Assembly (NCBI GenBank): GCA_964439265.1
Contig: CAYTOA010000004.1
Location: 49,262 to 81,261 of the forward strand
From: an uncultured Chitinophagaceae bacterium
GTDB taxonomy: Bacteria > Bacteroidota > Ignavibacteria > UBA10030 > UBA8401
Direction of reading: 5' to 3'
Length of the DNA stretch: 32,000 bases
Part shown: piece after piece, positions 9,576 through 31,247 of the stretch
Position numbering within the stretch: the stretch's first letter is position 1
Layout of the letters: each line of letters starts with the position of its first letter
Position numbers and translations under genes: made by a program
The notes under the pieces: generated by a model
Told to the model about the DNA's origin: nothing
The model's input: only the letters and a program-made list of their open reading frames with translations
Database searches by the model: none

Positions 9576-10031
9576 ATGGGATTGACTCAGCGGATCAACG
9601 AGGACTTAAGAGCTGCGATGAAATCGGGCAACAAGCTCCGGCTCGAAACTCTGCGTATGCTTCGTGCGCAGATCATTGAATTTGAGAAGAAGGGACTGGA
9701 CAGGCCGATGAACGAGGACGATGAGATGTCGATCCTTATGTCCGCTACGAAAAAGCGGAAAGAGTCGATTGAACATTTCAAAAATGCGGGACGCATGGAG
9801 CTTGTAGAGCAGGAGACGAAAGAGATAGAAATAATTTCCGAATACCTGCCGAAACAACTGTCCCGGGAGGAGGCCGAACGCATCGTCGAAGGGCTTGTCC
9901 GCCAATCCGGCGCGGCCTCGATGAAAGACCTGGGGAAGGTCATGCCGATGGCGATGAAGGAGTTAAAGGGGAAAATCGACTCTAAAGTAATCTCTGAGAT
10001 CGTAAAACAAAAGCTTGAAGGTCCGTCATGA
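9576..10031 (+). CDS. GatB/YqeY domain-containing protein
   Basis: 151-aa ORF. RINEDLRAAMKSGNKLRLETLRMLRAQI...EIEIISEYLPKQLSREEAERIV...MKDLGKVMPMAMKELKGKIDSKVISEIVKQKL is the typical full-length YqeY pattern. Confidence 0.85.
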   Translation: MGLTQRINEDLRAAMKSGNKLRLETLRMLRAQIIEFEKKGLDRPMNEDDEMSILMSATKKRKESIEHFKNAGRMELVEQETKEIEIISEYLPKQLSREEAERIVEGLVRQSGAASMKDLGKVMPMAMKELKGKIDSKVISEIVKQKLEGPS

Positions 10032-10576
10032 CCACATTCGACACAATACTGGTTGTCATTCTTGTTCTCTTTATGCTTGCTGGATGGCGAAGCGGTTTTA
10101 TTAAAAAACTCATTGCACTGGTTTGCTTGGCAGCATCGCTTATTCTTGCGACAAAGTACGCGTCGTCGTTCGGTGAGATGGTTCTTGTACCGATGGGACT
10201 TACCGCCGGCGGAAGTACCACGTTTTCATTTATCATCATCGTCGGCGGAATCATGATCGCGCAGGCGATCATCTATAAGATCGCGATCAAGAAGCATGCT
10301 GACGGCACATGGAACAAGATAGGGGGAGTCATTGTCGGCTGTGTGGAAGGAGGTATTTTCCTCAGCTTGATGGTCATCTTCTTCAGCCTCTACCTTCATT
10401 TCCCTTCCGCAGAAACTCGTTCGGATTCACTCTTATACCGCCCGGTCAAGAATTTTGCCCCGCACATTTTCGACAGCGTCAACACATTATTGCCGGAGTC
10501 AGAAGACTTCTACCAGGAGATCATCAGCACTGTGAAGAAAGCGTCCAACCATCGAGAAGCGCCTTCGCACCAATGA
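10028..10576 (+). CDS. cvpA: CvpA-family membrane protein
   Basis: 182-aa ORF with four predicted TM helices. The N-terminus (FDTILVVILVLFMLAGWRSGFIKKLIALV) is typical of the CvpA/colicin V production family. Its start overlaps the yqeY stop (ATGA at 10028-10031). Confidence 0.75.
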   Translation: MTTFDTILVVILVLFMLAGWRSGFIKKLIALVCLAASLILATKYASSFGEMVLVPMGLTAGGSTTFSFIIIVGGIMIAQAIIYKIAIKKHADGTWNKIGGVIVGCVEGGIFLSLMVIFFSLYLHFPSAETRSDSLLYRPVKNFAPHIFDSVNTLLPESEDFYQEIISTVKKASNHREAPSHQ

Positions 10577-14447: not shown

Positions 14448-14449
14448 AA

Positions 14450-14950
14450 ATGGCTACTGTAATCTCCAGCATCGGCGGTAAGAAATTCAAATGGACATTT
14501 GGTTCTGATGCCTCCTCTGTGTTCCTAGGAGAATATAAGCATGTCGTTGACATACAAAAAATTTCCCCTGATCGGTATTCAATTCTCCTCGATGGCAAAT
14601 CGTATCAGGCAATCATCACTAGAAATGAATTTACCTATTCCATCGTAATCCATGGAAAAATTTATAGGGTAGAAGTCGAGGGCTCAGCAAAAGAAAGAGC
14701 TGGTTTTGGCCTGGATGCTGGTGTAAAAGACCGTGCACAGCTTGAGGTGCGGTCTCCCATGCCAGGCATGGTAGTGAGGTGTGAAGTCCGAGAGGGCAGC
14801 ATAATAGAAGTTGGCGGCGGATTACTGATCCTCGAGGCAATGAAAATGGAAAATGAAATACGGGCGACAAGAAGCGGAATCATCAAGAAGATACATGTCC
14901 GGGAAAAGCAGGTTGTAGACAAAGGTGCATTGCTTATCACGATGGAATAA
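14450..14950 (+). CDS. Biotin carboxyl carrier / biotin-lipoyl attachment domain protein
   Basis: 166 aa from ATG 14450, 2 nt after the accC stop. The C-terminal biotinyl domain carries the canonical EAMKMENEI biotinylation motif. Confidence 0.85.
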   Translation: MATVISSIGGKKFKWTFGSDASSVFLGEYKHVVDIQKISPDRYSILLDGKSYQAIITRNEFTYSIVIHGKIYRVEVEGSAKERAGFGLDAGVKDRAQLEVRSPMPGMVVRCEVREGSIIEVGGGLLILEAMKMENEIRATRSGIIKKIHVREKQVVDKGALLITME

Positions 14951-14965
14951 AGGAAACAGAAACGT

Positions 14966-17206
14966 ATGCCGACTGTTACGATTCAAGAACCCGAAGTTAC
15001 TAAGACCCTCGCACTCCAGCATGGACTTACGGAAGATGAATACGAGTGGATCCACAAAATTCTGGGGAGAACTCCTAGCTACACCGAGTTGGGAATTTTC
15101 AGCGTAATGTGGAGCGAACATTGCAGCTATAAGAACTCCATCGCGTTGTTGAAAACTCTCCCGCGTTCCGGCGGACGGCTTCTCGTAAGTGCGGGAGAGG
15201 AGAACGCAGGACTTGTCGACATCGGCGACGGACTTGCTGTCGCTTTTAAAATTGAAAGCCACAATCACCCGTCGGCAGTGGAGCCTTACCAAGGAGCCGC
15301 AACCGGCGTTGGCGGGATCATGAGGGACATCTTCACGATGGGAGCACGTCCGATCGCTTCTCTCAATTCGTTGCGATTCGGCGAACTCGATGATGACCAG
15401 GCCAGACAGTTATTTCGCGGCGTCGTAAAGGGGATAGGGGATTATGGCAACAGCTTTGGCGTGCCGACGGTCGCCGGCGAAGTCTATTTCGATAAGAGCT
15501 ACCAGGGAAACCCTCTCGTCAACGCGATGGCAGTAGGCATCGTCAAGCACTCGGACATCGCATCCGCCGTTTCACGCGGTGCGGGCAACCCTGTCATGAT
15601 CGTCGGTTCATCAACGGGAAAGGACGGCATTCATGGGGCGACGTTCGCGTCGGAGGAGATTTCAGAGAAGTCCGAGAGCAAGCGGCCCTCAGTTCAGGTG
15701 GGAGATCCGTTTACGGAAAAATTACTCCTCGAGGCAACGCTTGAAGTGGTTAAGGCTGGATTGTTGATAGGCATACAAGATATGGGCGCAGCCGGAATTA
15801 CTTGTTCAACAACAGAAATGAGCGCCAAGGGAAAATCCGGAATGCGCATCGATCTCGACAAGGTGCCGGTGCGCGAATCGGACATGTCAGCGTACCAAAT
15901 CATGCTGTCCGAATCGCAGGAGAGAATGCTGCTCGTCGTCAAAAAGGGACAGGAAGAGAGCGTGACTGAAATTTTTAATAAGTGGGATCTTCATTCGGTC
16001 GTGATCGGCGAAGTCACGGACGATGGAATGGTGAAAGTTTACAAAGGGGGAGAACTTAAGGCAGATGTGCCGGCCGAAGATTTAGTTTTAGGCGGCGGTG
16101 CTCCCGTTTACACGCGTGAATCAAAGAAGCCTGAATATATTGATCATCGATCTCAAATGGACACTGACGCTTTGAGGAAACCTTCGGAGTTGAGGAACGT
16201 GCTTTTGCAGTTGCTCGGGAATCCCAACATCGCCAGCAAGAGATGGGTGTTCGAACAATACGATTCAATGGTAAGAACAGGCACTCGGGTTGGTCCGAAT
16301 TCCGACGCGGCAGTTGTTCGGGTCGATGGTACGAACAAATTCCTTGCGATGAAGACCGACTGCAATTCAAGGTATGTCTACCTTAATCCGAGAATTGGAG
16401 CAGAAATAGCTGTCGCTGAATCAGCTAGGAACGTTGTCTGCACTGGTGCCAAACCGCTAGGGATAACAAATTGCTTGAACTTTGGCAACCCCTACAAACC
16501 GGAATCGTATTGGCAATTCAAAGAAGCTGTTGAGGGCATTGCGAATGCCTGCAGAAAGTTTGGAACGCCGGTGACCGGCGGAAATGTGAGCTTTTACAAT
16601 GAGAATCCGTTAGGGGCGATCTTTCCGACACCGGTCATTGGAATGGTGGGGTTGATTGAAAGCGAGGCGCATATCACTACAAGCGCATTCAATGCTGTTG
16701 GAGATGACATCATACTCTTAGGAAAACTTCGCGGAGATATCAATGGCAGCGAGTATTTGAAAGAGTTTCATGGGATGAACGGGAACAATGCTCCGTATTT
16801 CGATATTGACGAAGAAATACGACTGCAGGCGTGTTGTCTTGAACTTATCCGGGCCGGACTCGTGAGCTCCGCTCATGATATCTCCGAGGGCGGAATTGCA
16901 ACGGCGATCGTAGAAAGCGTCATTACCAGCGATGATCATGAGATTGGCTGCGATATCGCACTGCCAAGAACCGATCTCAGAAGCGATTTTCTCCTGTTCG
17001 GTGAAGAACAGAGCAGAATCATTTTCTCTTCGAAGCCAGGCTCGAGAGGTTCAATAGAAAAACATGCGAGTGAACACAAGATCGATTTCACCGTCATCGG
17101 CAAAGTTACACCAAGCTCAACCATTACAATCGGAGAGAACATTAGTTTGGAAAGAGGGGTTGCGGAGAGGATTTACTTCGATTCAATAGGACGTCTGATG
17201 GATTAA
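14966..17206 (+). CDS. purL: Phosphoribosylformylglycinamidine synthase subunit PurL (small-type FGAM synthase II)
   Basis: 746-aa ORF with [54 protein letters not shown] and GGNVSFYNE, the duplicated AIR-synthase-like fold of stand-alone PurL. Confidence 0.97.
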
Positions 17207-19082: not shown

Positions 19083-19107
19083 ACCTGAAAAATAAACATG
19101 GCTATTG

Positions 19108-19472
19108 TGGAGGTGCGGGGATTCGAACCCCGGTCCGAAGTGATGACCATTAGACTTTCTCCATACTCAGTTCATCTCGTGTGCATTCGCCGCGGGGTGA
19201 TGGATGAACTCAACACTCCCAAAGCTATCTGGGATACAGATTCACTAATACCGCTCCAGCATTGATATTAGCACGCCCGACTGAAGTCGACACCTTGCAT
19301 GACACTAGTCAGGTAGAGCATCATGAAGATGCGTCGCTTAACTATTAATTAAGCAGCGAGTGCGTAGTTGTAGTCTGCACTTAAGTTGGTTCCGTTTTAT
19401 TATCGTGCAACTCGGAGAGCACGGTATGCTTATGTCTAACCATCTTCTACCCCGTCGAAACCATTCACCCCC
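19108..19472 (-). ncRNA. ssrA: Transfer-messenger RNA (tmRNA, SsrA)
   Basis: The minus-strand 5' end is GGGGGUGAAUGGUUUCGACGGGG, the conserved tmRNA 5' acceptor and UUCGACGGG box. The 3' end is GGACCGGGGUUCGAAUCCCCGCACCUCC-A, a T-arm plus acceptor strand complementary to the 5' GGGGGUG. An internal tag ORF reads ...GCA GAC UAC AAC UAC GCA CUC GCU GCU UAA, giving ...ADYNYALAA*, and is preceded by UAAUAA. The terminal CCA is not encoded (the genome reads CAA after the discriminator). Ends are +/- a few nt. Confidence 0.9.
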
Positions 19473-19482
19473 TTAATAGAAT

Positions 19483-20343
19483 CTAAACATTCCTATTCAG
19501 AATATCAATACATTGCAGCATCGACTGCATTTTCAACTGCTGACCTTTCTTTTCGAATACCAGTACCAAATTTCTCATCATTCTTTCGAGAATTTGCCTA
19601 TTGGAAACTGGCTCAAGATATTCATTCTTAAATGCATAGCCTAGTTTTTTCAGAGAATTCTTACAATCGTCCACGGAGAGAACTATTCCGCCATTGAAGG
19701 GATCGGCAAACAACGATCTCTGGCCGAAATCATACCGCAGAATGAAATGTCCGGGCATCCCAATACCCTGGACCGGGAAATTCAGCCTGCGCAACACGAG
19801 CATATAGATCACGGACAGAGTGATCGGTACTCCCTGTTTTGTTTCAATAACTTTGTTCAGAAAGTGATTATCCGTATCGTAGTAGTCGGATTCATTTCCC
19901 GTAAATCCCTTTTCAGCGGAGAAGTAACTGCCGATCTTTGCAGCAATCTCCTCACCTGGATCGGACGGGTCCAGGTGCGATTGAAATTCACTTGCAAAGA
20001 AATTCAATAAGTCGGAATAGATGTGCATATCAACGCTCGGATAGGCATGCTTTGCGATGAGGAATGCTCCCTCCTCCAGGTCAAGATCGCCCTTGTACTT
20101 TTCGCAATATGCGCGTAATTGCTCCTTGAAAGCGCCCAGAGAAATCGATTCATAAACTTCACGTATCCGCTGCTGCATCAGGGAATCGTCGGGTTGCAAG
20201 CAACTCTCCAGTACCGGCAATGCTTGCTCACCCGTCAGAAGAAGATGTTCTTTGGCTACTGAATAAATAGAATCGTCTTCATCGTCAAGGAGGTAAATCA
20301 ATGATTTTAAACGATTTATATCTATCTTATTAATCTGTTTCAT
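19483..20343 (-). CDS. SirB1/YchA-like protein (transglutaminase-like fold, C-terminal helical repeats)
   Basis: 286-aa ORF. The segment YYDTDNHFLNKVIETKQGVPITLSVIYMLVLRRLNFPVQGIGMPGHFILRY matches my recollection of the SirB1-family (COG2912) core (YY.p.Ns.L..Vl..r.G.PItL..l....a.rlgl...gv..PgHf.lr). The function of this family is unknown. Confidence 0.6.
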   Translation of the reverse strand: MKQINKIDINRLKSLIYLLDDEDDSIYSVAKEHLLLTGEQALPVLESCLQPDDSLMQQRIREVYESISLGAFKEQLRAYCEKYKGDLDLEEGAFLIAKHAYPSVDMHIYSDLLNFFASEFQSHLDPSDPGEEIAAKIGSYFSAEKGFTGNESDYYDTDNHFLNKVIETKQGVPITLSVIYMLVLRRLNFPVQGIGMPGHFILRYDFGQRSLFADPFNGGIVLSVDDCKNSLKKLGYAFKNEYLEPVSNRQILERMMRNLVLVFEKKGQQLKMQSMLQCIDILNRNV

Positions 20344-20350: not shown

Positions 20351-21199
20351 TCAGATGGGTTTGCGTTGAGGATAGTTCTCCATGAGACCGTTCTTTAAGA
20401 GTTTGAATGCTTCGCCAGGAGTGTCGGCAAATTTGAACAAGTTAAAATCCTCCTCGGCAATCATTCCATAGTCCTTAAGTTGACTAAAATTCAAGATGTG
20501 CTCCCAAAATTTCGTACCATAAAGAATCACCGTCATCTTCTTTTTGATTTTCTTCGTCTGGAGCAGCGTCAGCAACTCCATAAGTTCGTCCAAGGTCCCA
20601 AAACCCCCGGGAAATGCCACCAGCGCCTTCCCAAGGTACATGAACCAGTATTTCCGCATGAAGAAATAATGGAACTCGAAGTTCAATTCCGGCGAGATGT
20701 ATTTATTCGGAAATTGCTCAAGCGGCAGACCAATGTTCAGTCCCACCGATCGGCCCCCCGCGAGTGAGGCTCCCTTATTCGCCGCCTCCATTATGCCGGG
20801 ACCTCCGCCGGTAGCCACAACAAAGCGATTCTTCTCCTTCAGCGATGCCGACCATCTTGTCATAAGGAATGCAAGCTCCGCAGCGTCCTTATAGTACGAA
20901 GACATTTCAACGGCGATCCTCGCTTTGCGGTATTCCTCCGATTGCCTGTAATCGTTCCTTTTCTTTTTTTTCAGCTTTGAGATGGTTCCGGACAGCTTCT
21001 TCCGCGCAACGGATGGAGATTGTATGCGGGCTGAGCCGAAAAAGACGATAATATCTTTGACCCCGAAATAATTGAAGCGACTCAATGGCTCCAAAAATTC
21101 CGAAAGAATTCTTATCGGACGAGCATCCTTACTGTTAAGGAAACGCGGGTTCTTGTATGCCCGTAAAGGCAAGCGTTGCTCGTACTTTCTTGCCGTCAA
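20351..21199 (-). CDS. LOG-family / TIGR00730 Rossmann-fold protein (nucleotide 5'-monophosphate nucleosidase-like)
   Basis: 282-aa ORF with GGGPGIMEAANKGA and PGGFGTLDELMELLTLLQT (the LOG PGGxGTxxE motif). It also has the N-terminal AYKNPRFLNSKDARPIRILSEFLEP extension seen in the longer LOG subtype. Confidence 0.85.
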   Translation of the reverse strand: MTARKYEQRLPLRAYKNPRFLNSKDARPIRILSEFLEPLSRFNYFGVKDIIVFFGSARIQSPSVARKKLSGTISKLKKKKRNDYRQSEEYRKARIAVEMSSYYKDAAELAFLMTRWSASLKEKNRFVVATGGGPGIMEAANKGASLAGGRSVGLNIGLPLEQFPNKYISPELNFEFHYFFMRKYWFMYLGKALVAFPGGFGTLDELMELLTLLQTKKIKKKMTVILYGTKFWEHILNFSQLKDYGMIAEEDFNLFKFADTPGEAFKLLKNGLMENYPQRKPI

Positions 21200-21700
21200 C
21201 TACTTCCCACTTAATGATTGATGGAATATCCTTGCTATCATTTCAGCAATTTTTTCTAAATACATCCCGTCTATCTCATCGAATGAATTTAGCTCGGCAC
21301 TGTCTACGTCCAATACGCCAAAACAATCCCCGCCATACTTCAACGGTACCACTATTTCCGACCTTGAGCCGGGGTCGCACGCAATATGTCCCGGAAAAGC
21401 ATCGACGTCCGGAACGATGATTGTCCTTCGCTCTTTTGCCGCCTTTCCGCATACGCCCTTTCCGACGGCGATACGAACGCAGGCGACCTTACCTTGAAAC
21501 GGACCAAGAATCAACTCACCTTCTTCGATGCGATAGAAGCCAACCCACGAATATTGCAGAAACGCAGATTTTAGTGCGGCGCTGACGTTCGCCATGTCTG
21601 CGACAAGGTCATCTTCACCGGCAACGAGGGCCGCAAGTTGAGGGAGCAATTCCTCGTACCGCTCCTTCTTGCCTTCAGCGAGTACCGCTATTGTTTCCAT
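21200..21700 (-). CDS. msrC: GAF-domain free methionine-(R)-sulfoxide reductase-like protein (YebR/MsrC family)
   Basis: 166-aa single-GAF protein with WVGFYRIEEGELILGPFQGKVACVRIAVGKGVCGKAA...VPDVDAFPGHIACDPGSRSEIVVPL, including the conserved Cys positions of the fRMsr family. Its stop codon directly abuts the LOG start codon. Confidence 0.8.
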   Translation of the reverse strand: METIAVLAEGKKERYEELLPQLAALVAGEDDLVADMANVSAALKSAFLQYSWVGFYRIEEGELILGPFQGKVACVRIAVGKGVCGKAAKERRTIIVPDVDAFPGHIACDPGSRSEIVVPLKYGGDCFGVLDVDSAELNSFDEIDGMYLEKIAEMIARIFHQSLSGK

Positions 21701-22730
21701 GCATATTATCTTCCTGATTAAAGACCCGGTCGATTATGATCGGAACCGCACTCTCGCCGCTGACATATTGAGCGTGAAGCCGTGCAAACTCTTTTCTGAC
21801 CACTCCGAGTCCCGCGAACGAGCCGTCATCATTGGCGTCATGAGCAACGTTTGTGATGATGCCGATGTCTTTTCCGTCGCATGCGATTGGTCCTCCTCCG
21901 GAATGAACAAGACGCCCGTCTCCACGGAAACTGCAGAGCGTTCGCTGAATCTTCTTGTAGGTGTCGAGCCGCGCTACAACTTCCTGTCCAATGTAGCAGC
22001 CTTTCGTGAAACTAATTTGGGTCCGAAAATTCAATTCAAGGGGGTTGCATTCAGCCATGATTTCCCGCGAGTACTGCGGAATTCCGCGCCGGATCTTAAA
22101 GAGTTCAAAAGCGTCATACCCAACCTGGGCGTCCATGTAAGGACTGAGATGATCCGGAAAACTCACGTCGGCATCCGATATAGAGAAGAGGGCATCCACG
22201 TCATAATAGTTCGAACGGAATACCCGGACACCGAGTTTCTCCAAAAAATCGTCTGGATGAATCACGGCAAAAATAATATGTCGTCCCGTTTCGTCGTTGA
22301 CTCTCAGGTCTTCTGCGATAATGAATTTCTCGATCCATTGCATTACGGATAACTGCGCGTTCGGGCTTGCGATCAGCAGGATGTGATCGCTCATGTGGAG
22401 CGCGACGACCGAATCGACCACTCTCCCCTTCTCCGTTGTCAATACAGTCTGCACCGAGTCGCCGGGCAGAAACTTTCTGAAATCATTGGATGAAATCCTG
22501 TTCAAAAAATCGGCGGCATCACTGCCGTCCAGGCGAAGGAGTCCGTGGCCGGAGAAATCGACAAGAGCGCTTCCCGTTTCAAGAAGGCGGACCTCGTCGC
22601 GGACGGAATGAAAGCGTATCGGCTGCAACCAGCCATCCCGTTGCCGCAACAGGACGTTTGACCGCTCATAGTATTCCTGCAGTGGAAGCCGGCAAATTTC
22701 TTTCGGCGGATATGTCGCGATCTCATCCAT
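21675..22730 (-). CDS. ygfZ: YgfZ-type folate-binding protein (GcvT/aminomethyltransferase fold)
   Basis: 351-aa ORF with a GcvT-like N-terminal region (LVDFSGHGLLRLDGSDAADFLNRISSND) and the YgfZ signature K-G-C-Y-x-G-Q-E (FTKGCYIGQEVVARL). Its 3' end overlaps the msrC-like start by 26 nt. Confidence 0.8.
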   Translation of the reverse strand: MDEIATYPPKEICRLPLQEYYERSNVLLRQRDGWLQPIRFHSVRDEVRLLETGSALVDFSGHGLLRLDGSDAADFLNRISSNDFRKFLPGDSVQTVLTTEKGRVVDSVVALHMSDHILLIASPNAQLSVMQWIEKFIIAEDLRVNDETGRHIIFAVIHPDDFLEKLGVRVFRSNYYDVDALFSISDADVSFPDHLSPYMDAQVGYDAFELFKIRRGIPQYSREIMAECNPLELNFRTQISFTKGCYIGQEVVARLDTYKKIQRTLCSFRGDGRLVHSGGGPIACDGKDIGIITNVAHDANDDGSFAGLGVVRKEFARLHAQYVSGESAVPIIIDRVFNQEDNMHGNNSGTR

Positions 22731-22771: not shown

Positions 22772-22805
22772 AAAAAAAGAGGAGCACCCTCATCAAGTGC
22801 TCCTC
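22772..22805 (-). terminator. Rho-independent terminator closing the MotAB/FliG-like operon
   Basis: Read on the minus strand: GAGGAGCAC-uugaugagg-GUGCUCCUC, a perfect 9-bp GC-rich stem with a 9-nt loop, followed directly by UUUUUUU. It begins 24 nt after the stop of the 606-aa gene. Confidence 0.8.
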
Positions 22806-22828: not shown

Positions 22829-24649
22829 TCATTGAATCTGAGCCTCTTCCGGCTCTTCTCCCGTTTCAAGCGCAGAAGAAGTCTGGACGCCGCCTGCTTT
22901 GATGTATTGGCGCACCATTCTCGTTATACGTCTGCGAGCCTTCAGTTCATCGTCGGGCGAAACAGCTTTCATCGACGTCAGTCTGTCTTCCAGGATAATC
23001 CTCGATTTTGAGGGGAGCACCGAGAGGAACCGTTCTGAGATATCTGGAGGTGCATTCTTTAGCGCGATTGCGATCTCGTCGCCCGAAATATCTTTGACGA
23101 TCTGGCGAAGCATGCGCTCATCCAATTGGCTGATTGCGTTGAACGAAACCCGCTGGCTCGTGATCTCACGGTAGAGGTCAAGGTTCACGACCTTGATAAA
23201 CTCGATGATCGAAGATTCGGACGTTTCGTCGATGTTGTCGAAGATATCCAGCAACAGGTCTGTGCCCTGTACCTGGACGTTGTTGATCACCGGGATCGTC
23301 GAGGCCTTCGCGGCAAGCTGCTTGGCGACCGAAACATATGTGTCCGACGTGAGACGCCGCAGTTTTCCCAGCTCAAGCGCCACTTCGCCCTGCTGCATCG
23401 AAGGGAGGTTCTTCAGCATTGAGCTCGCTATCGGCGTCGTCAGTTGTGACAAGATAATTGCGATAATGCCGGGGGGTTCATCTTTCATCAACAAATAAAG
23501 CTGGGGCTCAGATAATCTTTCGAGGAAGGCGAAAGGATTTTGTTTCGAATTTCCCGCTTCCGAAAATCTTTTTACGGCAAGCTGATTCTGAAAATACGTC
23601 AGTGCTTCCCTCGTCTCTGCCGGAGTCCTCTCCTGTTTTTCCAGCGTGAGGGATTGGAGTGCTTTCATCTCTTCAATTGAAAAGTGGTCGCGCATCACCT
23701 GCAGGACATTGTTGCCGAGCTGCCCGATGATCACCGTGAGTCTTTCTTTTTGATTCGAGTCCGAAATCAAATCTCTGATCACATGCGACGTCAGATCGGA
23801 TTCGCCGGCGCACGTCACGATGAGATTCGAGCGCACTTTATCGACCTCTATGGCTTCCTGATATTCTGCGTTTGAATCTGCCATCGCCTGCTGCGCGGAA
23901 ACGACCTGAGCCTCTTCTCCCTGCACGGGCTGTTGAACCAGCATTTGAGGCTCCGCCCCTGATTCCTTCTTTCCTCTCGACAACAGCACAATAATAAGGA
24001 TCAGAATCAAAATGCCCAAAGCGATCAGCAGCATCGTTGTCGGATTCAGGAACGCATCCTGCGTCTTCGCCGGCGTGAGGTCGTTTCCCGGCTTCTGTGC
24101 GGCGCGCGCTTCGGCTTCCTGTCTTTCCTTCTCGAGTTCCTGGATTTGTTTTTCCTGTTCCGCCTTTTGCTGCTCTCGTTGTATCTGGAGCGTACTCGCC
24201 GGGAACGACATCTCCTGCAGATCCACCCGGTCGCCCCGGACTTTATTCAGCTTGCCGGTATAAAAAGCGATATTCGTCAAAAGGTCTCGTTCTTCGGGCG
24301 TCCGATTTTTATCGATCAGCATCTTTATGACGATCGACTCAATGCCTATCTGCGGCTTCTCCGTTTCGTCCGATGTCTGAGTCTGCGATTGGAAACCCGA
24401 TACTCCAGGGAGCAGAAAATCCCTGTTATCCCCTTTATCTTTTTTTGCCGGCGCACTCAAGTCTACAAGCGTCACGTCTGCAGTCACGAGGAAATTGAGG
24501 TCGGAAAAATAGCGGCGAATCTCCATCGAGATGCGGTCTTCCAGGTCACGCTCCATTTTTTTCTTCTCAAGCTCCAGGTCAACGGCAAAAAGCTTCGCCT
24601 GCAATACCACAACGAGCAGCACGATGATTCTTGTTAATCGAGTTTTCAT
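22829..24649 (-). CDS. Membrane-anchored FliG-like protein (N-terminal signal/anchor, FliF/YscJ-like periplasmic segment, coiled coil, TM helix, cytoplasmic FliG N/M/C-like region)
   Basis: 606-aa ORF. Residues 1-22 are a hydrophobic signal/anchor (RIIVLLVVVLQAKLFA). Residues ~30-150 form an alternating beta/alpha segment (DRISMEIRRYF..LNFLVTADVTLVDL...IESIVIKMLIDKNRTPEERDLLTNIAFYTGKLNKVRGDRVDLQEM) resembling a FliF/YscJ ring-building motif. Residues ~155-185 are a Q/E/K coiled coil, and ~203-224 a TM helix (TTMLLIALGILILILIIVLLS). Residues ~300-586 are collinear with FliG: FAFLERLSEPQLYLLMKDEPPGIIAIILSQLTTPIASSMLKNLP (EHPQ-box region) and FNAISQLDERMLRQIVKDISGDEIAIALKNAPPDISERFLSVLPSKSRIILEDRLTSMKAVSPDDELKARRRITRMVRQYIKAG (FliG_C including the charged helix). 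Confidence 0.7.
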   Translation of the reverse strand: MKTRLTRIIVLLVVVLQAKLFAVDLELEKKKMERDLEDRISMEIRRYFSDLNFLVTADVTLVDLSAPAKKDKGDNRDFLLPGVSGFQSQTQTSDETEKPQIGIESIVIKMLIDKNRTPEERDLLTNIAFYTGKLNKVRGDRVDLQEMSFPASTLQIQREQQKAEQEKQIQELEKERQEAEARAAQKPGNDLTPAKTQDAFLNPTTMLLIALGILILILIIVLLSRGKKESGAEPQMLVQQPVQGEEAQVVSAQQAMADSNAEYQEAIEVDKVRSNLIVTCAGESDLTSHVIRDLISDSNQKERLTVIIGQLGNNVLQVMRDHFSIEEMKALQSLTLEKQERTPAETREALTYFQNQLAVKRFSEAGNSKQNPFAFLERLSEPQLYLLMKDEPPGIIAIILSQLTTPIASSMLKNLPSMQQGEVALELGKLRRLTSDTYVSVAKQLAAKASTIPVINNVQVQGTDLLLDIFDNIDETSESSIIEFIKVVNLDLYREITSQRVSFNAISQLDERMLRQIVKDISGDEIAIALKNAPPDISERFLSVLPSKSRIILEDRLTSMKAVSPDDELKARRRITRMVRQYIKAGGVQTSSALETGEEPEEAQIQ

Positions 24650-24687: not shown

Positions 24688-25356
24688 CTAGACATCACTG
24701 TGGTAATAAATCCGTATAACGACGCGTCGATTATCGTTTCGCGCCTTTTCCGTGAATTGGCCGGTGAGAGGGTCTTTTTCCTTGTTTTGCGGACGGGCGT
24801 CGGCGAAGCCGGTGCTCGACAATCGTTTTCCTTCGATCGAAACCGTGTCCTGGAGGTAATGTACAACCTCGGTCGCACGGGCAGACGATAACTCCCAGTT
24901 AGAGCGAAAGTCCACCGTGCTCCGGAGAGGCGTATCGTCGGTGTGTCCTTCGACCGAAATGAAGGCATTTCGCGCTTTGACAAAATATCCCAGTATTTTG
25001 CCGATGCTGAAGATGGCGTCATATCCTTCCGGACGCAATGCGGCCTTTCCCGGCGGGAAGAGAAGATTGCTTCCGAAACGCAGTTCAATGCCCGCGTCTG
25101 TCATAACGACGTTCACCTGTCCCTTCAACGAAGAATTCTTTTCTATCGTTGTCAGCAACTCCTTCGAAAGGGTCCCAAGGTTCGCCTGCTGCTTCGCTGC
25201 TTCGGTCACCGAGGATGCAAGACTGTCCAGTTTTGACTGGTCGGGGATCGAAAGCGACAGCAACAACGTGAACGATGCAAGCATGGCAGTGAGCAAGTCT
25301 ATATAGCTGACCTGCCAGTGCTGCTCGTCCGTTCTTCGTTTCTCTCGTTTCCTCAT
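24688..25356 (-). CDS. motB: MotB-like stator subunit (single TM with conserved Asp + OmpA-like peptidoglycan-binding domain)
   Basis: 222-aa ORF. The N-terminus is basic, followed by WQVSYIDLLTAMLASFTLLL, the MotB TM/plug pattern (W-x-[IV]-x-Y-x-D-x-x-T) with the aspartate at the proton-binding position. The C-terminus reads VEGHTDDTPL...NWELSSARATEVVHYL...STGFADARP...NRRVVIRI, an OmpA/MotB domain. Confidence 0.85.
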   Translation of the reverse strand: MRKREKRRTDEQHWQVSYIDLLTAMLASFTLLLSLSIPDQSKLDSLASSVTEAAKQQANLGTLSKELLTTIEKNSSLKGQVNVVMTDAGIELRFGSNLLFPPGKAALRPEGYDAIFSIGKILGYFVKARNAFISVEGHTDDTPLRSTVDFRSNWELSSARATEVVHYLQDTVSIEGKRLSSTGFADARPQNKEKDPLTGQFTEKARNDNRRVVIRIYYHSDV

Positions 25357-25361: not shown

Positions 25362-26210
25362 CTACCCTCCGCTCTCGGGTGAAAGCTGGGAAACAGCTGG
25401 AACAGAAAGCGCACGGCTCTGTGGAATGTATGACGAAAGTTTATCCTGTATAAACACGGGATGCCTCTTGTCTTTGATCAGGCACAACCCTTCGATGATC
25501 ATTCCCTTGAGTAGGGCTTCTTCGTCTGTCCGTTTCTCTATCTTGTCAGCGAACGGAGCGAAGATAAAGTTCGAAAGGAAGAGGCCATACAGCGTCGTCG
25601 TAAACGCCACCGCAAGCGCCTGGAGGATAGGCCCGAACCCAGCGGCGGCATCGATCTTGGTGGAGAACATCTGGATCAAGCCGACAGTCGTGCCCAACAT
25701 ACCGTACCCCGGCGAGTAGCGCGCCGCAGCCCTGAAAATATTAACGTCCGTCGATTCCCGCTGGGCTTCATTCTCGATACGCGATTCGAGGATGTCCTTA
25801 ATCTCTTCCCGCTTGTAACCGTTGACCAGCATGAGAACCCCGTCGCGAAGGAACGGGTACTTGATTTGATTCGCGTAGTCCTCCAGGGATTCGATATCGT
25901 GCGTGTTGGAATATTGTGCGATGTCTTTTATCGTTTCCAGATACGTCGCGAAATTGATCTTATTCCTGATGTAGACAAAATACAGGGAGCGCACCGAACC
26001 GAACAATTCCCTGAAATTATAGCTGATGAGCATCGAAGAGCTGACGCCGAGAAATACAAAAATAATACCGGGTATGTGTACATAGTGAATAAGCGAATCC
26101 GGGACATACCCTTTTTGCAGCGCATCGACGGTTTCAGATTGAGCGCCGATGATCAGCAGAACATACGCCGCGATCCCAAAGAGAACATACCCGATAAAAG
26201 TTGAATTCAT
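25362..26210 (-). CDS. motA: MotA/PomA-like stator subunit (MotA/TolQ/ExbB proton-channel family)
   Basis: 282-aa ORF with 4 predicted TM helices and a ~100-aa cytoplasmic loop between TM2 and TM3 (YPFLRDGVLMLVNGYKREEIKDILESRIENEAQRE). SPGYGMLGTTVGLIQMF and TTTLYGLFLSNFIFAPFADKI are the MotA TM3 and TM4 signatures, each retaining its conserved Pro. The size and 4-TM topology fit MotA rather than TolQ/ExbB. Confidence 0.85.
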   Translation of the reverse strand: MNSTFIGYVLFGIAAYVLLIIGAQSETVDALQKGYVPDSLIHYVHIPGIIFVFLGVSSSMLISYNFRELFGSVRSLYFVYIRNKINFATYLETIKDIAQYSNTHDIESLEDYANQIKYPFLRDGVLMLVNGYKREEIKDILESRIENEAQRESTDVNIFRAAARYSPGYGMLGTTVGLIQMFSTKIDAAAGFGPILQALAVAFTTTLYGLFLSNFIFAPFADKIEKRTDEEALLKGMIIEGLCLIKDKRHPVFIQDKLSSYIPQSRALSVPAVSQLSPESGG

Positions 26211-26228: not shown

Positions 26229-26954
26229 TTACATTCGATAAAGTATCGCCCGCACATTGTCCATCGACGGATCAAGTTCGAGAGCTTTTTCCCAGCTAAG
26301 TTTTGCATCTGGGAACTGACGTAACATGTAATAGATCGACCCTCGAACTGCATATGCAAGAGCCATGTTGGGCGCAGCATCCACCGACTTGTTGATTTCG
26401 GCAAGCGCCTGAGTGTAACGCCGCTCAGAAAAAAGGCTTTGCGCTGTCTGAAGACTATTCAATGCCCTATTATAGTCGGCGTCATCCTTTGTATATGTCC
26501 CTTGTCCCGGCTGCTTCTTCCGCACTTTGGACGTGTCGACAATATCCTTGATGTCCGAGGCCAAGTCCTCTTCCTTCGGTTTCAACAGCTCATCGGTCTC
26601 ATCGCGGTCATGTTTCTTTTGACTTGCAGTTCGCTTCGGCTGCTCTTCCTCTTCATTAGCGCCTTGCGCATTCTTCTTCAATGCCTGCCCGGAATAATCA
26701 ATAGTGAAATCAATGTCTTTGTTGTAGAGGTCAAGCAGTACATCCATGTTCAGCGTTGGGGTAGTCAATTTCACGGAGGCGGGCGCAGACGGCGTTCCAC
26801 TCTCCTTCGACGGCGCCGATTCCTTCTGATACGCCGATTGAGCTTTCAGTTGACTTTTCGACGCCGAGTCTCCCTGCACCGTCAGGTTCTCCTGACCGAA
26901 TGTCAAAGATAAAATTCCAAAGCTAAACAGCGCTGCGATTAACACTCTTTTCAT
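26229..26954 (-). CDS. Secreted TPR-repeat protein with a long acidic/lysine-rich disordered linker
   Basis: 241-aa ORF. It has an N-terminal signal peptide (MKRVLIAALFSFGILSLTFG|QE; no lipobox Cys) and a low-complexity S/K/E/D region of ~130 aa. The C-terminal ~80 aa carry TPR-like repeats (YNRALNSLQTAQSLFSERRYTQALAEINKSVDAAPNMALAYAVRGSIYYMLRQFPDAKLSWEKALELDP). Confidence 0.6.
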   Translation of the reverse strand: MKRVLIAALFSFGILSLTFGQENLTVQGDSASKSQLKAQSAYQKESAPSKESGTPSAPASVKLTTPTLNMDVLLDLYNKDIDFTIDYSGQALKKNAQGANEEEEQPKRTASQKKHDRDETDELLKPKEEDLASDIKDIVDTSKVRKKQPGQGTYTKDDADYNRALNSLQTAQSLFSERRYTQALAEINKSVDAAPNMALAYAVRGSIYYMLRQFPDAKLSWEKALELDPSMDNVRAILYRM

Positions 26955-26978: not shown

Positions 26979-28109
26979 TTACAGAACGAAATTCACTTGC
27001 AGACCGTAGAGCGGTCCCGCAATGTCGGAGCGGTCAAAACTCTTGCTGATGGCAATACCGTTGTAGAAACCGGTCAACCCAACATTTCTGCTCAATCGCA
27101 GTGACAACCCGGCATAGTACGACTCTGGAAGTCCGCTGTTCTTGAAGGAGACATCGAACCCGCCGGCAAGGTCGAGCATGAGGATTCCGGGACCTACCTG
27201 ATCATTTCCTATGATTTCAAATGAAAGTCCGGGCATGACAATGATCCCCATCAATCCGAACTTCGATGTTCCAATCAACCGTGAATCAATATAGAACTTC
27301 AAAAAATTCATGATCGTCGCCATCTCGTTCAGGCGGTAACCAATGGAATAATATCCAACCGAATTGCCGGAATCTTTGACCCCAAAAGTGTAGGAATTGC
27401 CGAGGTTGAAACCAACGGTGAGATAATTCTCGATGAGACCTGTCTTCCTTTTGAGTGCATATTCTGCTGCAAGCTCAGACCCGGGATCGGTCGGCAGAAT
27501 GCGATACTCCGCCTTCAGTTCTTTGCTCCATACCGTGATCCCATTGAGGTCGTTTATGTTCAGAAACATAATAATTTGGTTCGACGAAACCAAAACATCG
27601 GTGGAAACAATACCGTCGACATTGTGCGCCTTCGCATACGTGCGTATCTCATCTTCCGTGTATGTGTTCTTCACCTGAAGAGTGCTGTCCGTGGCTTTGA
27701 ACGACAGTGTCTTAAGATCCTGTGCGCCCACGGCAGCAAATCTCCGGTCTTTCGTCAACGCGTTCTTCAATTTCCCCTCGAAATAACTCGATAGAAACTG
27801 AATCTCCGAATATGTCAACTCTTCCTTGAAGGGCCAACGGACTTTCGTCTTGTACAACAACAATGTCCTGATGCTTGGACTGACTTCTTTTAACATCGGC
27901 GTCATCGCTGACAGAGCAGTATCCAAAGCAATGTCGAATTTTGGAAAGATTGAAATGAGTTTCGAGTTTTCCGTCGACGGGATTTTTGCTACAGAGGGTT
28001 GAGGCTCTTGGCTTTGTGATTGTTGTTGGGCTTTGGCTGCGAAGGAGAGCAAAACAGTTGAAAAAACGATAAAAGCAATTACAGGAAGATGATTTTGCCG
28101 AGATTGCAT
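26979..28109 (-). CDS. Signal-peptide envelope protein: periplasmic alpha/beta N-domain plus putative outer-membrane beta-barrel C-terminal half
   Basis: 376-aa ORF with a signal peptide (VIAFIVFSTVLLSFAAKA|QQ). Residues ~90-200 show a pattern (LKNALTKDRRFAAVG...AKAHNVDGIVSTDVLVSSNQIIMFLNINDLNGITVWS) reminiscent of LpoB/CsgG/TolB-N/FlgO-type periplasmic domains. Residues ~215-376 have alternating hydrophobic/polar strands with G/Y/F-rich turns (YLTVGFNLGNSYTFGV, VGYYSIGYRL, GLSFEIIG, MLDLAGGFDVSF, YYAGLSLRLS, LYGLQVNFVL), suggestive of a small beta-barrel. No family is recognised. Confidence 0.45.
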   Translation of the reverse strand: MQSRQNHLPVIAFIVFSTVLLSFAAKAQQQSQSQEPQPSVAKIPSTENSKLISIFPKFDIALDTALSAMTPMLKEVSPSIRTLLLYKTKVRWPFKEELTYSEIQFLSSYFEGKLKNALTKDRRFAAVGAQDLKTLSFKATDSTLQVKNTYTEDEIRTYAKAHNVDGIVSTDVLVSSNQIIMFLNINDLNGITVWSKELKAEYRILPTDPGSELAAEYALKRKTGLIENYLTVGFNLGNSYTFGVKDSGNSVGYYSIGYRLNEMATIMNFLKFYIDSRLIGTSKFGLMGIIVMPGLSFEIIGNDQVGPGILMLDLAGGFDVSFKNSGLPESYYAGLSLRLSRNVGLTGFYNGIAISKSFDRSDIAGPLYGLQVNFVL

Positions 28110-28249: not shown

Positions 28250-28277
28250 AATATAACAGAAAATTTAGATTTGTCAA
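28250..28277 (-). promoter_or_regulatory. Candidate sigma70-type promoter with extended -10 for the five-gene operon
   Basis: The minus strand reads TTGACA-aatctaaattttcTGtTATATT: a perfect -35, a 16-nt spacer, a TGn extension and a -10 with 5/6 match. It lies ~140 nt upstream of the ATG at 28109. It is unknown whether the host's primary sigma factor uses this consensus. Confidence 0.35.
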
Positions 28278-28586: not shown

Positions 28587-31247
28587 TTATTGGTTTTCAT
28601 CCTTTTTTGGAAAAATATCAGGATACAGCCTTGTGGCGCAATCCGGGCAGAGACTGTGCGAAAGCTTGGCCTCAGAATGCGTTGAGAGATATGCTTCCAG
28701 AAGGTTCCAGTAACCCGAATCATCCCTAATTTTTTTGCAGCTAGCGCAGATCGGAATCAATCCGCCCAGGACCTTGATTTTTGCCAGTGAATCTTCGACC
28801 CGTTCTTTGAGAATTTTTTCTCGTTGAAGAAGCTGCCACACTCTGGCGCGATAGATTCCAAACATGAACCCGAACAAGATGACAGAGATCAACACGTAGA
28901 ACCAGCGAGCCTGGTAGAAGTGAGGAGCAAGAGTAAAATCAAAGGAAGCGCCTTCAAGATTCCATACGCCGTCGTTATTGCACGCGATGACTCTAAAATT
29001 GTATTGGCCGGGGGGAATATTCGTATACAACGCCGTACGCCGGGAACTCGTTTCCTTCCAGACGTCGTCGTAACCAACAAGCTTATATTTGAACTGCACT
29101 TTTTCCGAAGCGGTGTAGCTCAGGCCGGCATACTGGAATTCTACTTCCCCCTTCCCGGCCGGCGCTGATGCGTGCAGCGTTGGAACATACGATTTCCTGT
29201 CAATCATGGCCTCTTCAATAACCACTGGAGGAGGGATCGAGTTCGTCATCAATGCGCCGGGGTCAATCACAACAATGCCTTTCGTGGTTGGGAAGATAAG
29301 TCTCCCGTCGGCAGTTTTTGATCCAGCAGGCTGGGCATTGCCGTTGCACTCGCTCGTTATCATGCCGTCCGAAATGCCGAATGACATACAGCGGACAGAG
29401 GATTTTTTGCCGTCCGCAAACTCGTTTAGATCTTCTATGCTGGCCCGGTAGATACCTTTGTTGCAGCTCATCCAGAGATTACGGTCGTCGTCCTCCAGAA
29501 TTTGAAATACCGCATCATTAAACAATCCCGATTTGCTGGAGATGTGCGAGAACGATTGGTTCTTATATCGGTAGAGTCCTCCTCCATACGTTCCAATCCA
29601 CATGGTGCCGTCCTTGTCTTCATGGAAAGCGTAGACGGGCTCGGTCGGACATCCTTCTGAAACATTAAATGCTGTAACTTCATTTTTCTTCCAGCGGATC
29701 ATCCCTCCGTTGTGACCTATCCAGATGCTCCCGCTACTATCGCGATAGAGCGTTCGAATCATAGTATTCGACAGGTTCAGATTCCCCACCGACGTAATAG
29801 TTCCATTTTTGAATTCACTCAGAGTACCATGAGCTGTCCCGATCCACATCGATCCGTCGGGAAGCGGAAGAAGCGCTCTCACATCGTCATAAGCCGGTCC
29901 ATTCTTTCCCGTGAAGGTTTTGAATTTGCCATCCTTGAAACGCACAACGCCAGAACTCGTAGCAAGCCATACTGCATCGTCTTTATCCTGAACAATCGCG
30001 CGAATCAAATTGGCGGGTAAGCCGTTTTTTGTATTGAACACATCGAACCTATTTGACAGAACGTGGATCGCCCCCCAGCCAATAGTGCCGATCCATACGC
30101 TTCCTTCCCGCGATTGGTATATCGCATCCGAGTTCTCCTCGTCACTCCCGTTTTGACCGGCCATGTGTGCAAAATTTCCCTCCCAAAGACGATTGATCCC
30201 GTCGCTGGAGGTCCCAACCCACACATTGCCCTCGCGGTCATTCATGACGGAAAAAACGAAATTGCTTGAAAGTCCGTCTTTTGTTCCGACTGCTGTAAAC
30301 TTTCCGCCTGAAAGTCGATTTATTCCGCCGAACTCCGTCCCAATCCACAAATCACCTTTTGGATCTTGCGCAATACATTGAACAGAGTTGTCGGACAGAC
30401 CTTCGGCTTTCCCATAGATTTTGAGAGTGCCGCCGCGAAACTTCACCAAGCCTTTTGGTGTCCCGACCCAGATCGAACTATCACGACCAACACAGAGGGC
30501 TGTTATATCCTCGCTCGGAAGACCTTGAGGCTTCTTCAAAAAAGCAGATCGGTCGTTCATCATGCGATTGACCCCGGCATTCGTCCCTATCCATATGGTT
30601 CCTTCAAAGTCTTCAGCGAAGGAGGAGACAGAATTGCTGGAAAGACCTTCAGTGACAGTATAATGTCGAAATTTGCCATCCACGATACTGTAGATTCCAT
30701 TATCCGCAGTCCCTATCCATGCCCCGCCGCGTCGATCTTTGAATAAGGTTTGGATCCGAGTCTTCGCTAAAATCTGAGCGCCTGCAGAAAATTGACCGTC
30801 CTTCAGCTGCGTCATTCCTTCGAACGTACCGATGAGAAGGGAACCGTCATCAAGTTCAATGAGAGAGGTTACGTTGTTGTGCGGAATGGCGGGCGTGTTT
30901 TCCCTGTCAAACACAGTGAACCGTGCGCCGTCATATCGAACCAGGCCCTCTTCAGTTCCGAACCAGATAAAGCCATCTCTCGTTTGGATAATTGATCGAA
31001 CGGTACCCTGCGGCAAACCATCTGCAATAGACCACGAGCGAACAGAAAAACGAGTAAGAAATTTTTGTGGAATTCCCTTTTGTCTTGCACTGCCAGCCGA
31101 ATCCAGGCCACGCGGAAATGCTCGCATGCAGACAACAAGAATGAACGGCAGAATGCAGGCGCCCGCTCGGGCTGCCATTCGGAATGCAGATGCCGCAAAC
31201 TGTGAACTCACTGGGAATTTCTCCTTGAAGGAAATCAGGACGGGCAC
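28587..31247 (-). CDS. Transmembrane sensor: periplasmic two-component-regulator beta-propeller repeats + Y_Y_Y domain, TM helix, cytoplasmic coiled coil and C-terminal four-Cys motif
   Basis: 886-aa ORF with an N-terminal hydrophobic anchor (ACILPFILVVCMRAF). It has more than 12 repeats of the D-x-x-G-x-[IL]-W-[IV]-G-T pattern (RDGFIWFGT, RRGGAWIGT, FEGTIWIGT, DSSIWVGT, KGDLWIGT, EGNVWVGT, EGSVWIGT, DGSMWIGT, SGSIWIGH, DGTMWIGT, DRNLWMS). The Y_Y_Y/Ig-like domain reads VEFQYAGLSYTASEKVQFKYKLVGYDDVWKE...PPGQYNFRVIACNNDGVWN, and the TM helix WFYVLISVILFGFMFGIY. The tail ends in GGLIPICASCKKIRDDSGYWNLLEAYLSTHSEAKLSHSLCPDCATRLY. There is no HisKA/HATPase, GGDEF or HTH domain. The start could alternatively be the in-frame ATG at 31178. 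Confidence 0.85.
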   Translation of the reverse strand: MPVLISFKEKFPVSSQFAASAFRMAARAGACILPFILVVCMRAFPRGLDSAGSARQKGIPQKFLTRFSVRSWSIADGLPQGTVRSIIQTRDGFIWFGTEEGLVRYDGARFTVFDRENTPAIPHNNVTSLIELDDGSLLIGTFEGMTQLKDGQFSAGAQILAKTRIQTLFKDRRGGAWIGTADNGIYSIVDGKFRHYTVTEGLSSNSVSSFAEDFEGTIWIGTNAGVNRMMNDRSAFLKKPQGLPSEDITALCVGRDSSIWVGTPKGLVKFRGGTLKIYGKAEGLSDNSVQCIAQDPKGDLWIGTEFGGINRLSGGKFTAVGTKDGLSSNFVFSVMNDREGNVWVGTSSDGINRLWEGNFAHMAGQNGSDEENSDAIYQSREGSVWIGTIGWGAIHVLSNRFDVFNTKNGLPANLIRAIVQDKDDAVWLATSSGVVRFKDGKFKTFTGKNGPAYDDVRALLPLPDGSMWIGTAHGTLSEFKNGTITSVGNLNLSNTMIRTLYRDSSGSIWIGHNGGMIRWKKNEVTAFNVSEGCPTEPVYAFHEDKDGTMWIGTYGGGLYRYKNQSFSHISSKSGLFNDAVFQILEDDDRNLWMSCNKGIYRASIEDLNEFADGKKSSVRCMSFGISDGMITSECNGNAQPAGSKTADGRLIFPTTKGIVVIDPGALMTNSIPPPVVIEEAMIDRKSYVPTLHASAPAGKGEVEFQYAGLSYTASEKVQFKYKLVGYDDVWKETSSRRTALYTNIPPGQYNFRVIACNNDGVWNLEGASFDFTLAPHFYQARWFYVLISVILFGFMFGIYRARVWQLLQREKILKERVEDSLAKIKVLGGLIPICASCKKIRDDSGYWNLLEAYLSTHSEAKLSHSLCPDCATRLYPDIFPKKDENQ

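Follow-up and report, generated by a model that had tools for sequence, protein, structure and literature searches.

A FliF-FliG fusion gene and its flagellar-type stator: a candidate minimal rotor-stator module in uncultured Bacteroidota

Introduction

What would a bacterium build from a protein that joins a shortened FliF-like membrane anchor to a FliG, when the gene for it stands at the end of an operon that also encodes a stator? The question is raised by a 32,000-nucleotide stretch of DNA from an uncultured bacterium of the Bacteroidota (assembly GCA_964439265.1, contig CAYTOA010000004.1, positions 49,262 to 81,261 of the forward strand), referred to below as the window, in which an open reading frame (ORF) of 606 aa is found at 22829-24649 (-). 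An initial annotation, made from the sequence alone, interpreted its product as a reduced MS-ring-like anchor fused to its own FliG. Our analysis upholds that interpretation with corrections: the periplasmic part is one ring-building motif (RBM) of the RBM3 type of FliF, RBM1 and RBM2 are absent, and the gene belongs to a five-gene operon that looks like a new rotor-stator module, derived from the flagellar motor and reduced to a minimal non-flagellar configuration with new partners. We are highly confident of the identity of the module's parts. That they form a stand-alone, self-contained rotor-stator machine derived from flagellar motor parts is the reading that we favour, with moderate confidence.

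The fusion gene

The length, coordinates and ATG start of the ORF were reproduced as first annotated.

22829..24649 (-): FliF(RBM3)-FliG fusion gene, 606 aa; ORF with Pfam FliG_M and FliG_C matches and 57 full-length homologues

The full-length architecture is common to 57 homologues from independent assemblies, which are 41-94% identical. Compared with the closest orthologue, the rate of nonsynonymous substitution (dN) is 0.02-0.07 in the folded domains; the synonymous rate (dS) is saturated already at this distance, so that the comparison yields a low dN with a saturated dS and no dN/dS ratio. The 57 full-length homologues together with low dN at saturated dS point to a real fusion gene under strong purifying selection. 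Because the fusion is conserved across phyla, it is neither a frameshift nor an assembly error, a doubt that the initial annotation had raised about the joining of the two parts. It is also very improbable that the gene is a relic, now decaying, of a flagellum since lost, or that an artefact joined two genes. Such a relic could show the degraded EHPQR, MFXF and D288/D289 positions described below, but the same architecture is found in 57 close homologues and at least 59 distant clusters from independent assemblies, purifying selection is strong, the five genes are kept together across phyla, and the motifs LPG, RGD and DEPPG are invariant.

The cytoplasmic FliG half

Pfam identified FliG_M at aa 383-452 (E = 6e-14, 52.4 bits, gathering cut-off 25) and FliG_C at aa 489-588 (1.4e-19, 70.8 bits, cut-off 23.3). 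The family profile matched FliG chains only when run against the PDB (best 2.9e-25), and Foldseek aligned the structural model to full-length FliG structures over 313-327 columns. E. coli fliF, fliG, motA and motB served as references for comparison. In hhalign, the superfamily alignment matched aa 300-590 to residues 6-323 of the 331 residues of E. coli FliG (probability 98.7, E = 1.5e-16); the proposed collinearity with the N, M and C domains of FliG is therefore right. The initial annotation had considered that the region might instead belong with MgtE-N or generic armadillo-like repeats. The Pfam, PDB-profile and hhalign results all place it with FliG, and MgtE_N itself was rejected at an E-value of 0.009, below the cut-off, against 1.4e-19 for FliG_C.

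23534..23752 (-): aa 300-372, FliG N-domain-like region; hhalign to E. coli FliG 6-63, E = 4.7e-4
23294..23503 (-): aa 383-452, FliG middle domain; Pfam FliG_M and alignments to T. maritima and E. coli FliG
22886..23185 (-): aa 489-588, FliG C-terminal domain; Pfam FliG_C and alignment
22979..23017 (-): aa 545-557, LPSKSRIILEDRL, torque-helix equivalent; hhalign to E. coli FliG and a table of 15 loci

Residue by residue, K264, R281, D288, D289 and R297 of E. coli FliG correspond to K531, K548, D555, R556 and S564 of the fusion. The first reading had assigned R281 to K, D288 to D, D289 to R and the EHPQ box to DEPP by hand, and all four equivalences hold against E. coli FliG itself. The charges of K531, K548 and D555 are kept and those equivalent to D289 and R297 are changed; only at the R281 equivalent do all 15 loci have a basic residue. 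Two motifs of the flagellar switch are replaced: EHPQR, which binds FliM, reads DEPPG at aa 390-394, and the MFXF hinge, involved in switching, reads RVSF at aa 500-503. In the close family, both replacements vary little or not at all. With TIGR00207, the fliG equivalog model, the protein scored 91 bits, short of the cut-off of 226.7, so the fusion is a FliG-domain protein and not an orthologue of the flagellar switch protein. Databases name such proteins only as 'FliG C-terminal domain-containing protein' or 'flagellar motor switch protein FliG'.

The membrane anchor and the periplasmic domain

A hydrophobicity scan of the fusion protein found only two hydrophobic segments, aa ~3-28 and ~198-230, both flanked on the cytoplasmic side by basic residues (MKTRLTR and SRGKK). 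They agree with the layout first proposed, an N-terminal signal or anchor and one later transmembrane (TM) helix, and would fit either an in-out-in topology or a cleaved signal peptide with one TM helix. Between them lie the periplasmic domain and a stalk whose length differs by >100 aa between aligned relatives.

24584..24649 (-): aa 1-22, MKTRLTRIIVLLVVVLQAKLFA, predicted N-terminal membrane anchor or signal peptide; from the hydrophobicity scan and the basic residues at the N-terminus
24200..24583 (-): aa 23-150, split ring-building motif of the FliF RBM3 type in the periplasm; AlphaFold, Foldseek, PF08345 in relatives, and hhalign
24350..24460 (-): aa 64-100, low-confidence loop at the site of the FliF beta-collar insert; predicted local distance difference test (pLDDT) score <50
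24230..24238 (-): aa 138-140, RGD motif before the last RBM strand, equivalent to E. coli FliF 415-417; invariant in two family alignments
24044..24199 (-): aa 151-202, periplasmic Q/E/K-rich stalk helix; helix 154-183 in the AlphaFold model
23975..24043 (-): aa 203-225, TM helix; hydrophobicity, and helix 203-225 in the model

Two AlphaFold models, one of the full-length protein (pLDDT 69) and one of the domain only (pLDDT 72), gave the same order of elements for aa 23-150: helix 24-47, strand 53-63, loop 64-100, strand 101-112, helix 118-131 and strand 141-146. In both, the folded periplasmic part comprises only about 128 residues and a single RBM. What had been described as two beta-alpha-beta blocks are, in these models, the two halves of a single alpha-beta-[37-aa loop]-beta-alpha-beta domain. 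A split RBM of this arrangement is found in FliF RBM3 and in SpoIIIAG (Bergeron 2016, PMC4768692).

Three independent lines of evidence, namely fold, distant relatives and direct alignment, show that the domain is one split ring-building motif homologous to FliF RBM3. By fold, the top 17 Foldseek matches of the domain model in the PDB were all FliF S-ring/RBM3 chains (E = 2e-4 to 1.3e-3), with query TM-scores of up to 0.64, and the same FliF chains appeared behind the FliG matches when the full-length model was used. No chain of the sporulation channel protein SpoIIIAG was among the top Foldseek matches, the sequence links are to FliF, and the insert is a short loop and not a beta-triangle or collar. 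For distant relatives, 1.84 billion cluster representatives were searched exhaustively with HMMER and the domain profile; this returned 79 proteins, the distant ones mostly about 600 aa long. A Pfam scan of 76 distant relatives found FliG_C in 59, FliG_N in 27 and YscJ_FliF_C (PF08345) in 22, the last with a best E-value of 2.6e-8. In Pfam, this family represents the C-terminal part of the FliF periplasmic region; its placement inside the N-terminal periplasmic domain was viewed for one relative. A second, word-indexed protein search with the superfamily alignment returned only the close family again.

By direct alignment, aa 116-150 in the N-terminal alignment of the superfamily were matched by hhalign to residues 396-430 of E. 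coli FliF (E = 2.3e-3), where RBM3 has its last helix and strand, and the match includes an RGD motif common to both (VRGDRVDLQEMSFP versus KRGDSLNVVNSPF in FliF). With the close-family profile, aa 24-65 matched FliF 226-273 weakly (E = 0.1), over the helix and strand that open RBM3, and the two matches are collinear. The halves of RBM3 are separated by ~120 residues in E. coli FliF, including the beta-collar, versus ~50 here; in place of the collar stands the 37-aa low-confidence loop. Inside the loop, an LPG motif at aa 80-82 (L80, P81 and G82) is invariant throughout the superfamily, and the global alignment sets it opposite 'PGGVPG' of FliF, a suggestive correspondence only. Pfam found no match in the fusion protein for the SctJ-homology region that comprises RBM1 and RBM2 (YscJ_FliF). 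The possibility, raised at the outset, that the N-terminal segment lacks an RBM-like fold is answered by Foldseek, PF08345 and hhalign: the fold is ring-building, and specifically that of FliF RBM3. In FliF, RBM3 is the domain that builds the S-ring of 33-34 subunits, and the 'small' ring first envisaged finds no support.

The five-gene operon and its stator

The fusion gene is the last of five genes on the same strand, with intergenic gaps of 5-38 nt. The order in the window is 376-aa protein, tetratricopeptide repeat (TPR) protein, MotA-like protein, MotB-like protein and fusion.

28250..28277 (-): promoter-like site, TTGACA-16-TATATT with TG; 11/12 consensus matches, a consensus match only
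26979..28109 (-): 376-aa envelope protein with a signal peptide, a conserved periplasmic domain at aa ~60-200 and a beta-barrel-like alternating pattern in the C-terminal half
26229..26954 (-): secreted TPR protein, 241 aa, with a signal peptide, a low-complexity acidic/lysine-rich linker and C-terminal TPRs; Pfam TPR_2 and TPR_1
25362..26210 (-): MotA-like stator A subunit, 282 aa, PomA/MotP type; Pfam MotA_ExbB, NCBIfam and PDB
24688..25356 (-): MotB-like stator B subunit, 222 aa, with plug, TM helix and OmpA-like peptidoglycan-binding domain; Pfam MotB_plug and OmpA, NCBIfam MotD/MotS/MotB, PDB MotB/PomB
22779..22805 (-): intrinsic-terminator-like hairpin, 11-bp stem and T-run, just past the fusion stop codon

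The promoter-like site lies about 140 nt upstream of the first gene, and together with the terminator-like hairpin it encloses exactly the five module genes. The TPR protein is kept in the module at all loci. Relatives of the 376-aa protein are homologous across clades and end in an aromatic residue; from the sequence pattern only, the protein is inferred to be an outer-membrane barrel. One member of its family gave a faint FlgT_M match (E = 0.036) that is too weak to use.

The MotA-like protein matched flagellar NCBIfam models at 1e-44 to 1e-36 overall (MotP 8.6e-44, PomA 2.6e-39) versus 0.04 for TolQ, and flagellar MotA/PomA structures in the PDB at about 1e-27. In the MotB-like protein, the ion-conducting TM residue Asp20 (YIDLLT) is invariant, and the plug/TM segment at aa 13-45, HWQVSYIDLLTA(M/L)(L/I)A.F.L(L/F)L..S.PDQ.K(L/F)D, hardly varies across all Bacteroidota-type loci, including those whose fusion proteins share only about 40% identity. 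Conservation is consistently higher in MotA and MotB than in the rotor protein. As judged by these profile matches, the stator is of flagellar type (the 'FIT' clade of PMC12505986) and not a generic Exb/Tol-type motor. All stator scores are below the equivalog cut-offs, which indicates a distinct subfamily.

MotAB-type motors also drive the Zorya anti-phage system, and the MotB-like protein does match PADLOC ZorB models at 1.6e-23. This match is weaker than that to flagellar MotB families (9e-37), and MotA, with 282 aa and no long ZorA tail, reached only 0.0098 against ZorA. Membership in Zorya was rejected: genes resembling ZorC/D/E are lacking, and PADLOC matched none of the other three module proteins. 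We regard a Zorya-like system as highly implausible here.

A second way to read the operon is as a non-rotary transducer, in which a 5:2 MotA/MotB motor engages the FliG part of a monomeric or low-order membrane protein, without a large rotor ring, and the stalk and the periplasmic domain hand force on to the outer-membrane partner as in Ton/Tol or GldLM. The operon joins an inner-membrane motor, a TPR protein and an outer-membrane-type protein, as do Tol-Pal and Ton, and the wide variation of stalk length is what a periplasm-spanning spacer might show. More generally, GldLM of type IX secretion and gliding, ExbBD-TonB, TolQR-TolA, AglRQS and ZorAB of Zorya are likewise 5:2 ion-driven inner-membrane motors that do work at the envelope with co-encoded periplasmic and outer-membrane partners and no flagellum. 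However, these systems lack FliG, and force passes in them by way of the B subunit or of a partner of the TonB/TolA type, whereas the present module combines a PomA/MotP-like stator with a FliG rotor. The periplasmic domain is specifically of the RBM3 type, a ring-forming module; the stator is flagellar in type, with its own peptidoglycan anchor, and unlike ExbBD/TolQR; and the torque-helix contact is cytoplasmic and conserved, which in known systems means a gear on a ring. On this evidence we consider a non-rotary transducer unlikely and return to the rotor-stator reading.

The rotor-stator interface

The contact between MotA and FliG was compared in a MAFFT alignment of 15 module pairs at about 20% identity together with V. 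alginolyticus PomA, E. coli MotA and E. coli FliG. The equivalent of FliG R281 is K or R in 15/15 loci, and that of MotA E98 is E or D in all 15. In contrast to this retained pair, the FliG D289 equivalent is acidic in none of the 15 loci (R, H, K, Q, G, A, I or T), and 13 of them have N, Q or S at the MotA R90 equivalent. In the window, MotA E110 and FliG K548 form the pair corresponding to E. coli E98/R281. The retention of E98/R281 and the loss of R90/D289 on both proteins suggest, from the aligned residues, the pattern expected of a dedicated rotor-stator pair that co-evolves. The initial annotation had suspected co-evolution with a dedicated MotA. This part of its claim is supported, with one pair retained and the other lost on both partners across 15 loci; the MotA loop that it named (REEIKDILESRIENE) is not the FliG-contact segment, which is YSNTHDIESLED at aa ~100-111. 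For MotA we prefer the alignment that holds both references, with which phmmer alignments to PomA and MotA1 agree, over a shifted hhalign alignment discussed below.

Distribution of the module

The fusion is found in at least 59 protein clusters at 50% identity. Among 21 GTDB species with the module, all of them uncultured Bacteroidota/Ignavibacteria-like metagenome-assembled genomes (MAGs), the order of 376-aa-type protein, TPR protein, MotA, MotB and fusion is kept at every informative locus, and the flanks are unrelated. The same five genes occur in other orders in Fibrobacterota MAGs and in three divergent lineages, L030, L031 and L033. No other flagellar gene was found in the window or among the Pfam-annotated called genes at the loci around six fusion relatives.

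Several of the divergent loci carry additional genes next to the module. In L030 (GCA_029884425.1), a Sel1/SPOR-domain protein precedes it (3191-4663 (+)), and a beta-barrel porin (BBP2_2) and Wza/Wzz/Wzy-type polysaccharide export genes follow it (10614-16819 (+)). In L031, the MotB (4864-5982 (+)) is 372 aa long with a C-terminal TPR extension, and a PorP_SprF-family gene (5991-7070 (+)) lies directly after the module; since this family is linked to type IX secretion and gliding, the gene is a possible hint at the output, in a single case. A fourth divergent relative, L032, encodes the fusion, the TPR protein and a 217-aa barrel-like protein (L032:7034-10597 (+)), with a PilZ-domain gene divergently upstream (6456-6797 (-)).

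Neighbouring genes in the window

Downstream of the module lie a YgfZ/GCV_T-like gene (21675-22730 (-)), a LOG/Lysine_decarbox gene (20351-21199 (-)) and a Transglut_core2 gene (19483-20343 (-)). The three are syntenic in some relatives at about 45% identity (for example L003:12163-14702), and the flanks are wholly different in others. This synteny is lineage history, and the three genes are outside the module. Further along, a transfer-messenger RNA gene (19105-19472 (-); Rfam 153 bits; ARAGORN tag peptide ADYNYALAA) lies between dapF and the transglutaminase-like gene.

Just upstream of the module, an 886-aa protein is encoded at 28587-31247 (-), with a Reg_prop beta-propeller and a Y_Y_Y domain followed by one TM helix; its gene is not kept at this position in relatives. 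The protein lacks a kinase domain and any other known output domain. A Cys-rich motif at its end, CASCKKIRDDSGYWNLLEAYLSTHSEAKLSHSLCPDC, resembles a small zinc-ribbon output module. Elsewhere in the window, a mechanically called MutS2-like ORF (10309-12948 (+)) begins inside a CvpA-like gene (10028-10576 (+)) in another frame. The overlap is an artefact of ORF calling, and the true start is probably a later Met near 'MTEYQSAAEKLEF'.

Discussion

We propose that the module works as follows. Oligomerisation driven by RBM3 would form a membrane ring carrying one FliG per subunit. Peptidoglycan-anchored, ion-powered MotA5B2 units would push on the torque helix of the FliG C-domain and turn the ring, with the pair of MotA E110 and FliG K548 as a contact in torque transfer. 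The periplasmic ring, on its stalk of variable length, may then act on the TPR protein and the partner in the outer membrane, or against them, and the output might be, as a guess, movement of the surface or the outer membrane. Rotation would probably be unidirectional.

Compared with the flagellar motor, in which FliF and FliG form the rotor and MotA5B2 the stator, the module shares the RBM3-type domain, the FliF topology, a complete FliG N-M-C, MotA and MotB with plug, Asp and peptidoglycan-binding domain, and the equivalent of the E98/R281 pair. It differs in that the rotor is one polypeptide and not two, in that RBM1, RBM2 and the beta-collar are missing, in the loss of EHPQR, MFXF and the D288/D289 acidic pair, and in its operon, which lacks fliM/N and export, rod, hook and filament genes and contains the TPR and 376-aa proteins instead. 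With no RBM1/2 there would be no seat for a type III export gate, and with no beta-collar none for a rod. Given the loss of RBM1/2, collar, EHPQR and MFXF, the machine should be neither a flagellar basal body nor a motor switched by CheY, and FliM binding is presumably impossible. The most far-reaching form of our proposal is a free-standing rotary engine in bacteria without a flagellum, made of a FliF-RBM3/FliG ring driven by MotAB with a new outer-membrane partner as output. We put it forward tentatively, as a possibility short of an expectation.

The chief competitor is that the module is an accessory of a conventional flagellum, either an extra ring or a scaffold for recruiting or parking stators that co-assembles with normal FliF and FliG. 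Every recognisable part of the module belongs to a flagellar family, and one relative of the 376-aa protein shows the faint FlgT_M match. TPR and outer-membrane-associated proteins are known as stator or disk scaffolds in Vibrio and Campylobacterota (MotX, PflA/B and FlgO/P/T), which also speaks for an accessory. Many Fibrobacterota are flagellated, and flagellar gene sets were reported in two of three Fibrobacteres lineages examined (PMC4704652). Against an accessory role, the module has a MotA and MotB of its own, and it adjoins no other flagellar genes at the examined loci. The FliM-binding and hinge motifs are gone, and the charge pattern, unlike that of canonical FliG, has co-varied with the module's own MotA in the manner of a dedicated pair. 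We therefore judge an accessory role unlikely, if slightly less so than a non-rotary transducer.

Several further observations, like the flagellated Fibrobacterota just mentioned, weigh against a free-standing rotor-stator machine. Ring formation is proposed by analogy with FliF RBM3 and with engineered fusions. The structural models are of moderate confidence (pLDDT 69-72), the FliF matches in Foldseek have modest E-values and high RMSDs (root-mean-square deviations), and OsmC-fold proteins rank right behind FliF at 2e-3, so the fold by itself is not decisive. The close-family N-terminal profile found no FliF in the PDB, its sole match being a chance one to peptide YY; the relationship to FliF is therefore remote, and the link required the fold search, the distant relatives and hhalign. 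On the stator side, hhalign to E. coli MotA alone moves the loop by four residues, which makes the MotA equivalences alignment-dependent. The 376-aa protein, the presumed output partner, has no match among Pfam, NCBIfam or PDB profiles. Lastly, L032 has no motAB adjoining the fusion; this variant may borrow a stator encoded elsewhere.

In the full-text literature we found no description of this fusion family or of the module, and the sole natural precedent found is the FliF-FliG fusion of Chlamydiaceae (Bergeron 2016, PMC4768692), in which a single polypeptide with two TM segments likewise joins a shortened FliF to sequence from FliG. The Chlamydia protein has about 330 aa, with an RBM2-like region and another RBM, no SpoIIIAG-like (RBM3) domain and only an M-like region of FliG; it has no associated stator, and an injectisome has been proposed as its partner (PMC4768692). 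The present protein, by contrast, has RBM3 only, a full FliG with the torque helix and a dedicated MotAB. In Salmonella and Vibrio, engineered FliF-FliG fusions form rings (PDB 8z4d/8z4g; PMC11481574, PMC6079021). They share the covalent 1:1 joining of FliF and FliG, and their S-ring structures are among the best matches to the periplasmic domain. They are artificial, however, and comprise a full-length FliF with RBM1-3 and collar inside a complete flagellum.

The module thus looks like a natural minimal system, with one rotor polypeptide, a fixed 1:1 ratio of FliF to FliG, one dedicated stator, no switch and two envelope partners, and this composition should make it far more tractable than the flagellum for reconstitution and cryo-electron microscopy. 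It offers a natural charge-pair experiment that is directly testable, E98/R281 being kept and R90/D289 dropped on both sides. It also makes two questions addressable: what is the minimal rotor that one MotA5B2 unit can drive, and can the torque core of FliF S-ring, FliG and MotAB work without the export apparatus and the C-ring, or has it ever done so? In hosts without flagella, the module would merit treatment as a new kind of bacterial rotary machine and be an addition to the short list of biological rotary machines. It could in that case also explain motility or an envelope function in uncultured lineages of Bacteroidota/Ignavibacteria-like bacteria and Fibrobacterota. If the free-standing engine is real, the rotor-stator core of the flagellum can exist and work without a type III secretion apparatus, and the module would be one of two things: a relative of a pre-flagellar rotor that has survived, or the product of a radical reduction, put to another use in the envelope such as surface movement.

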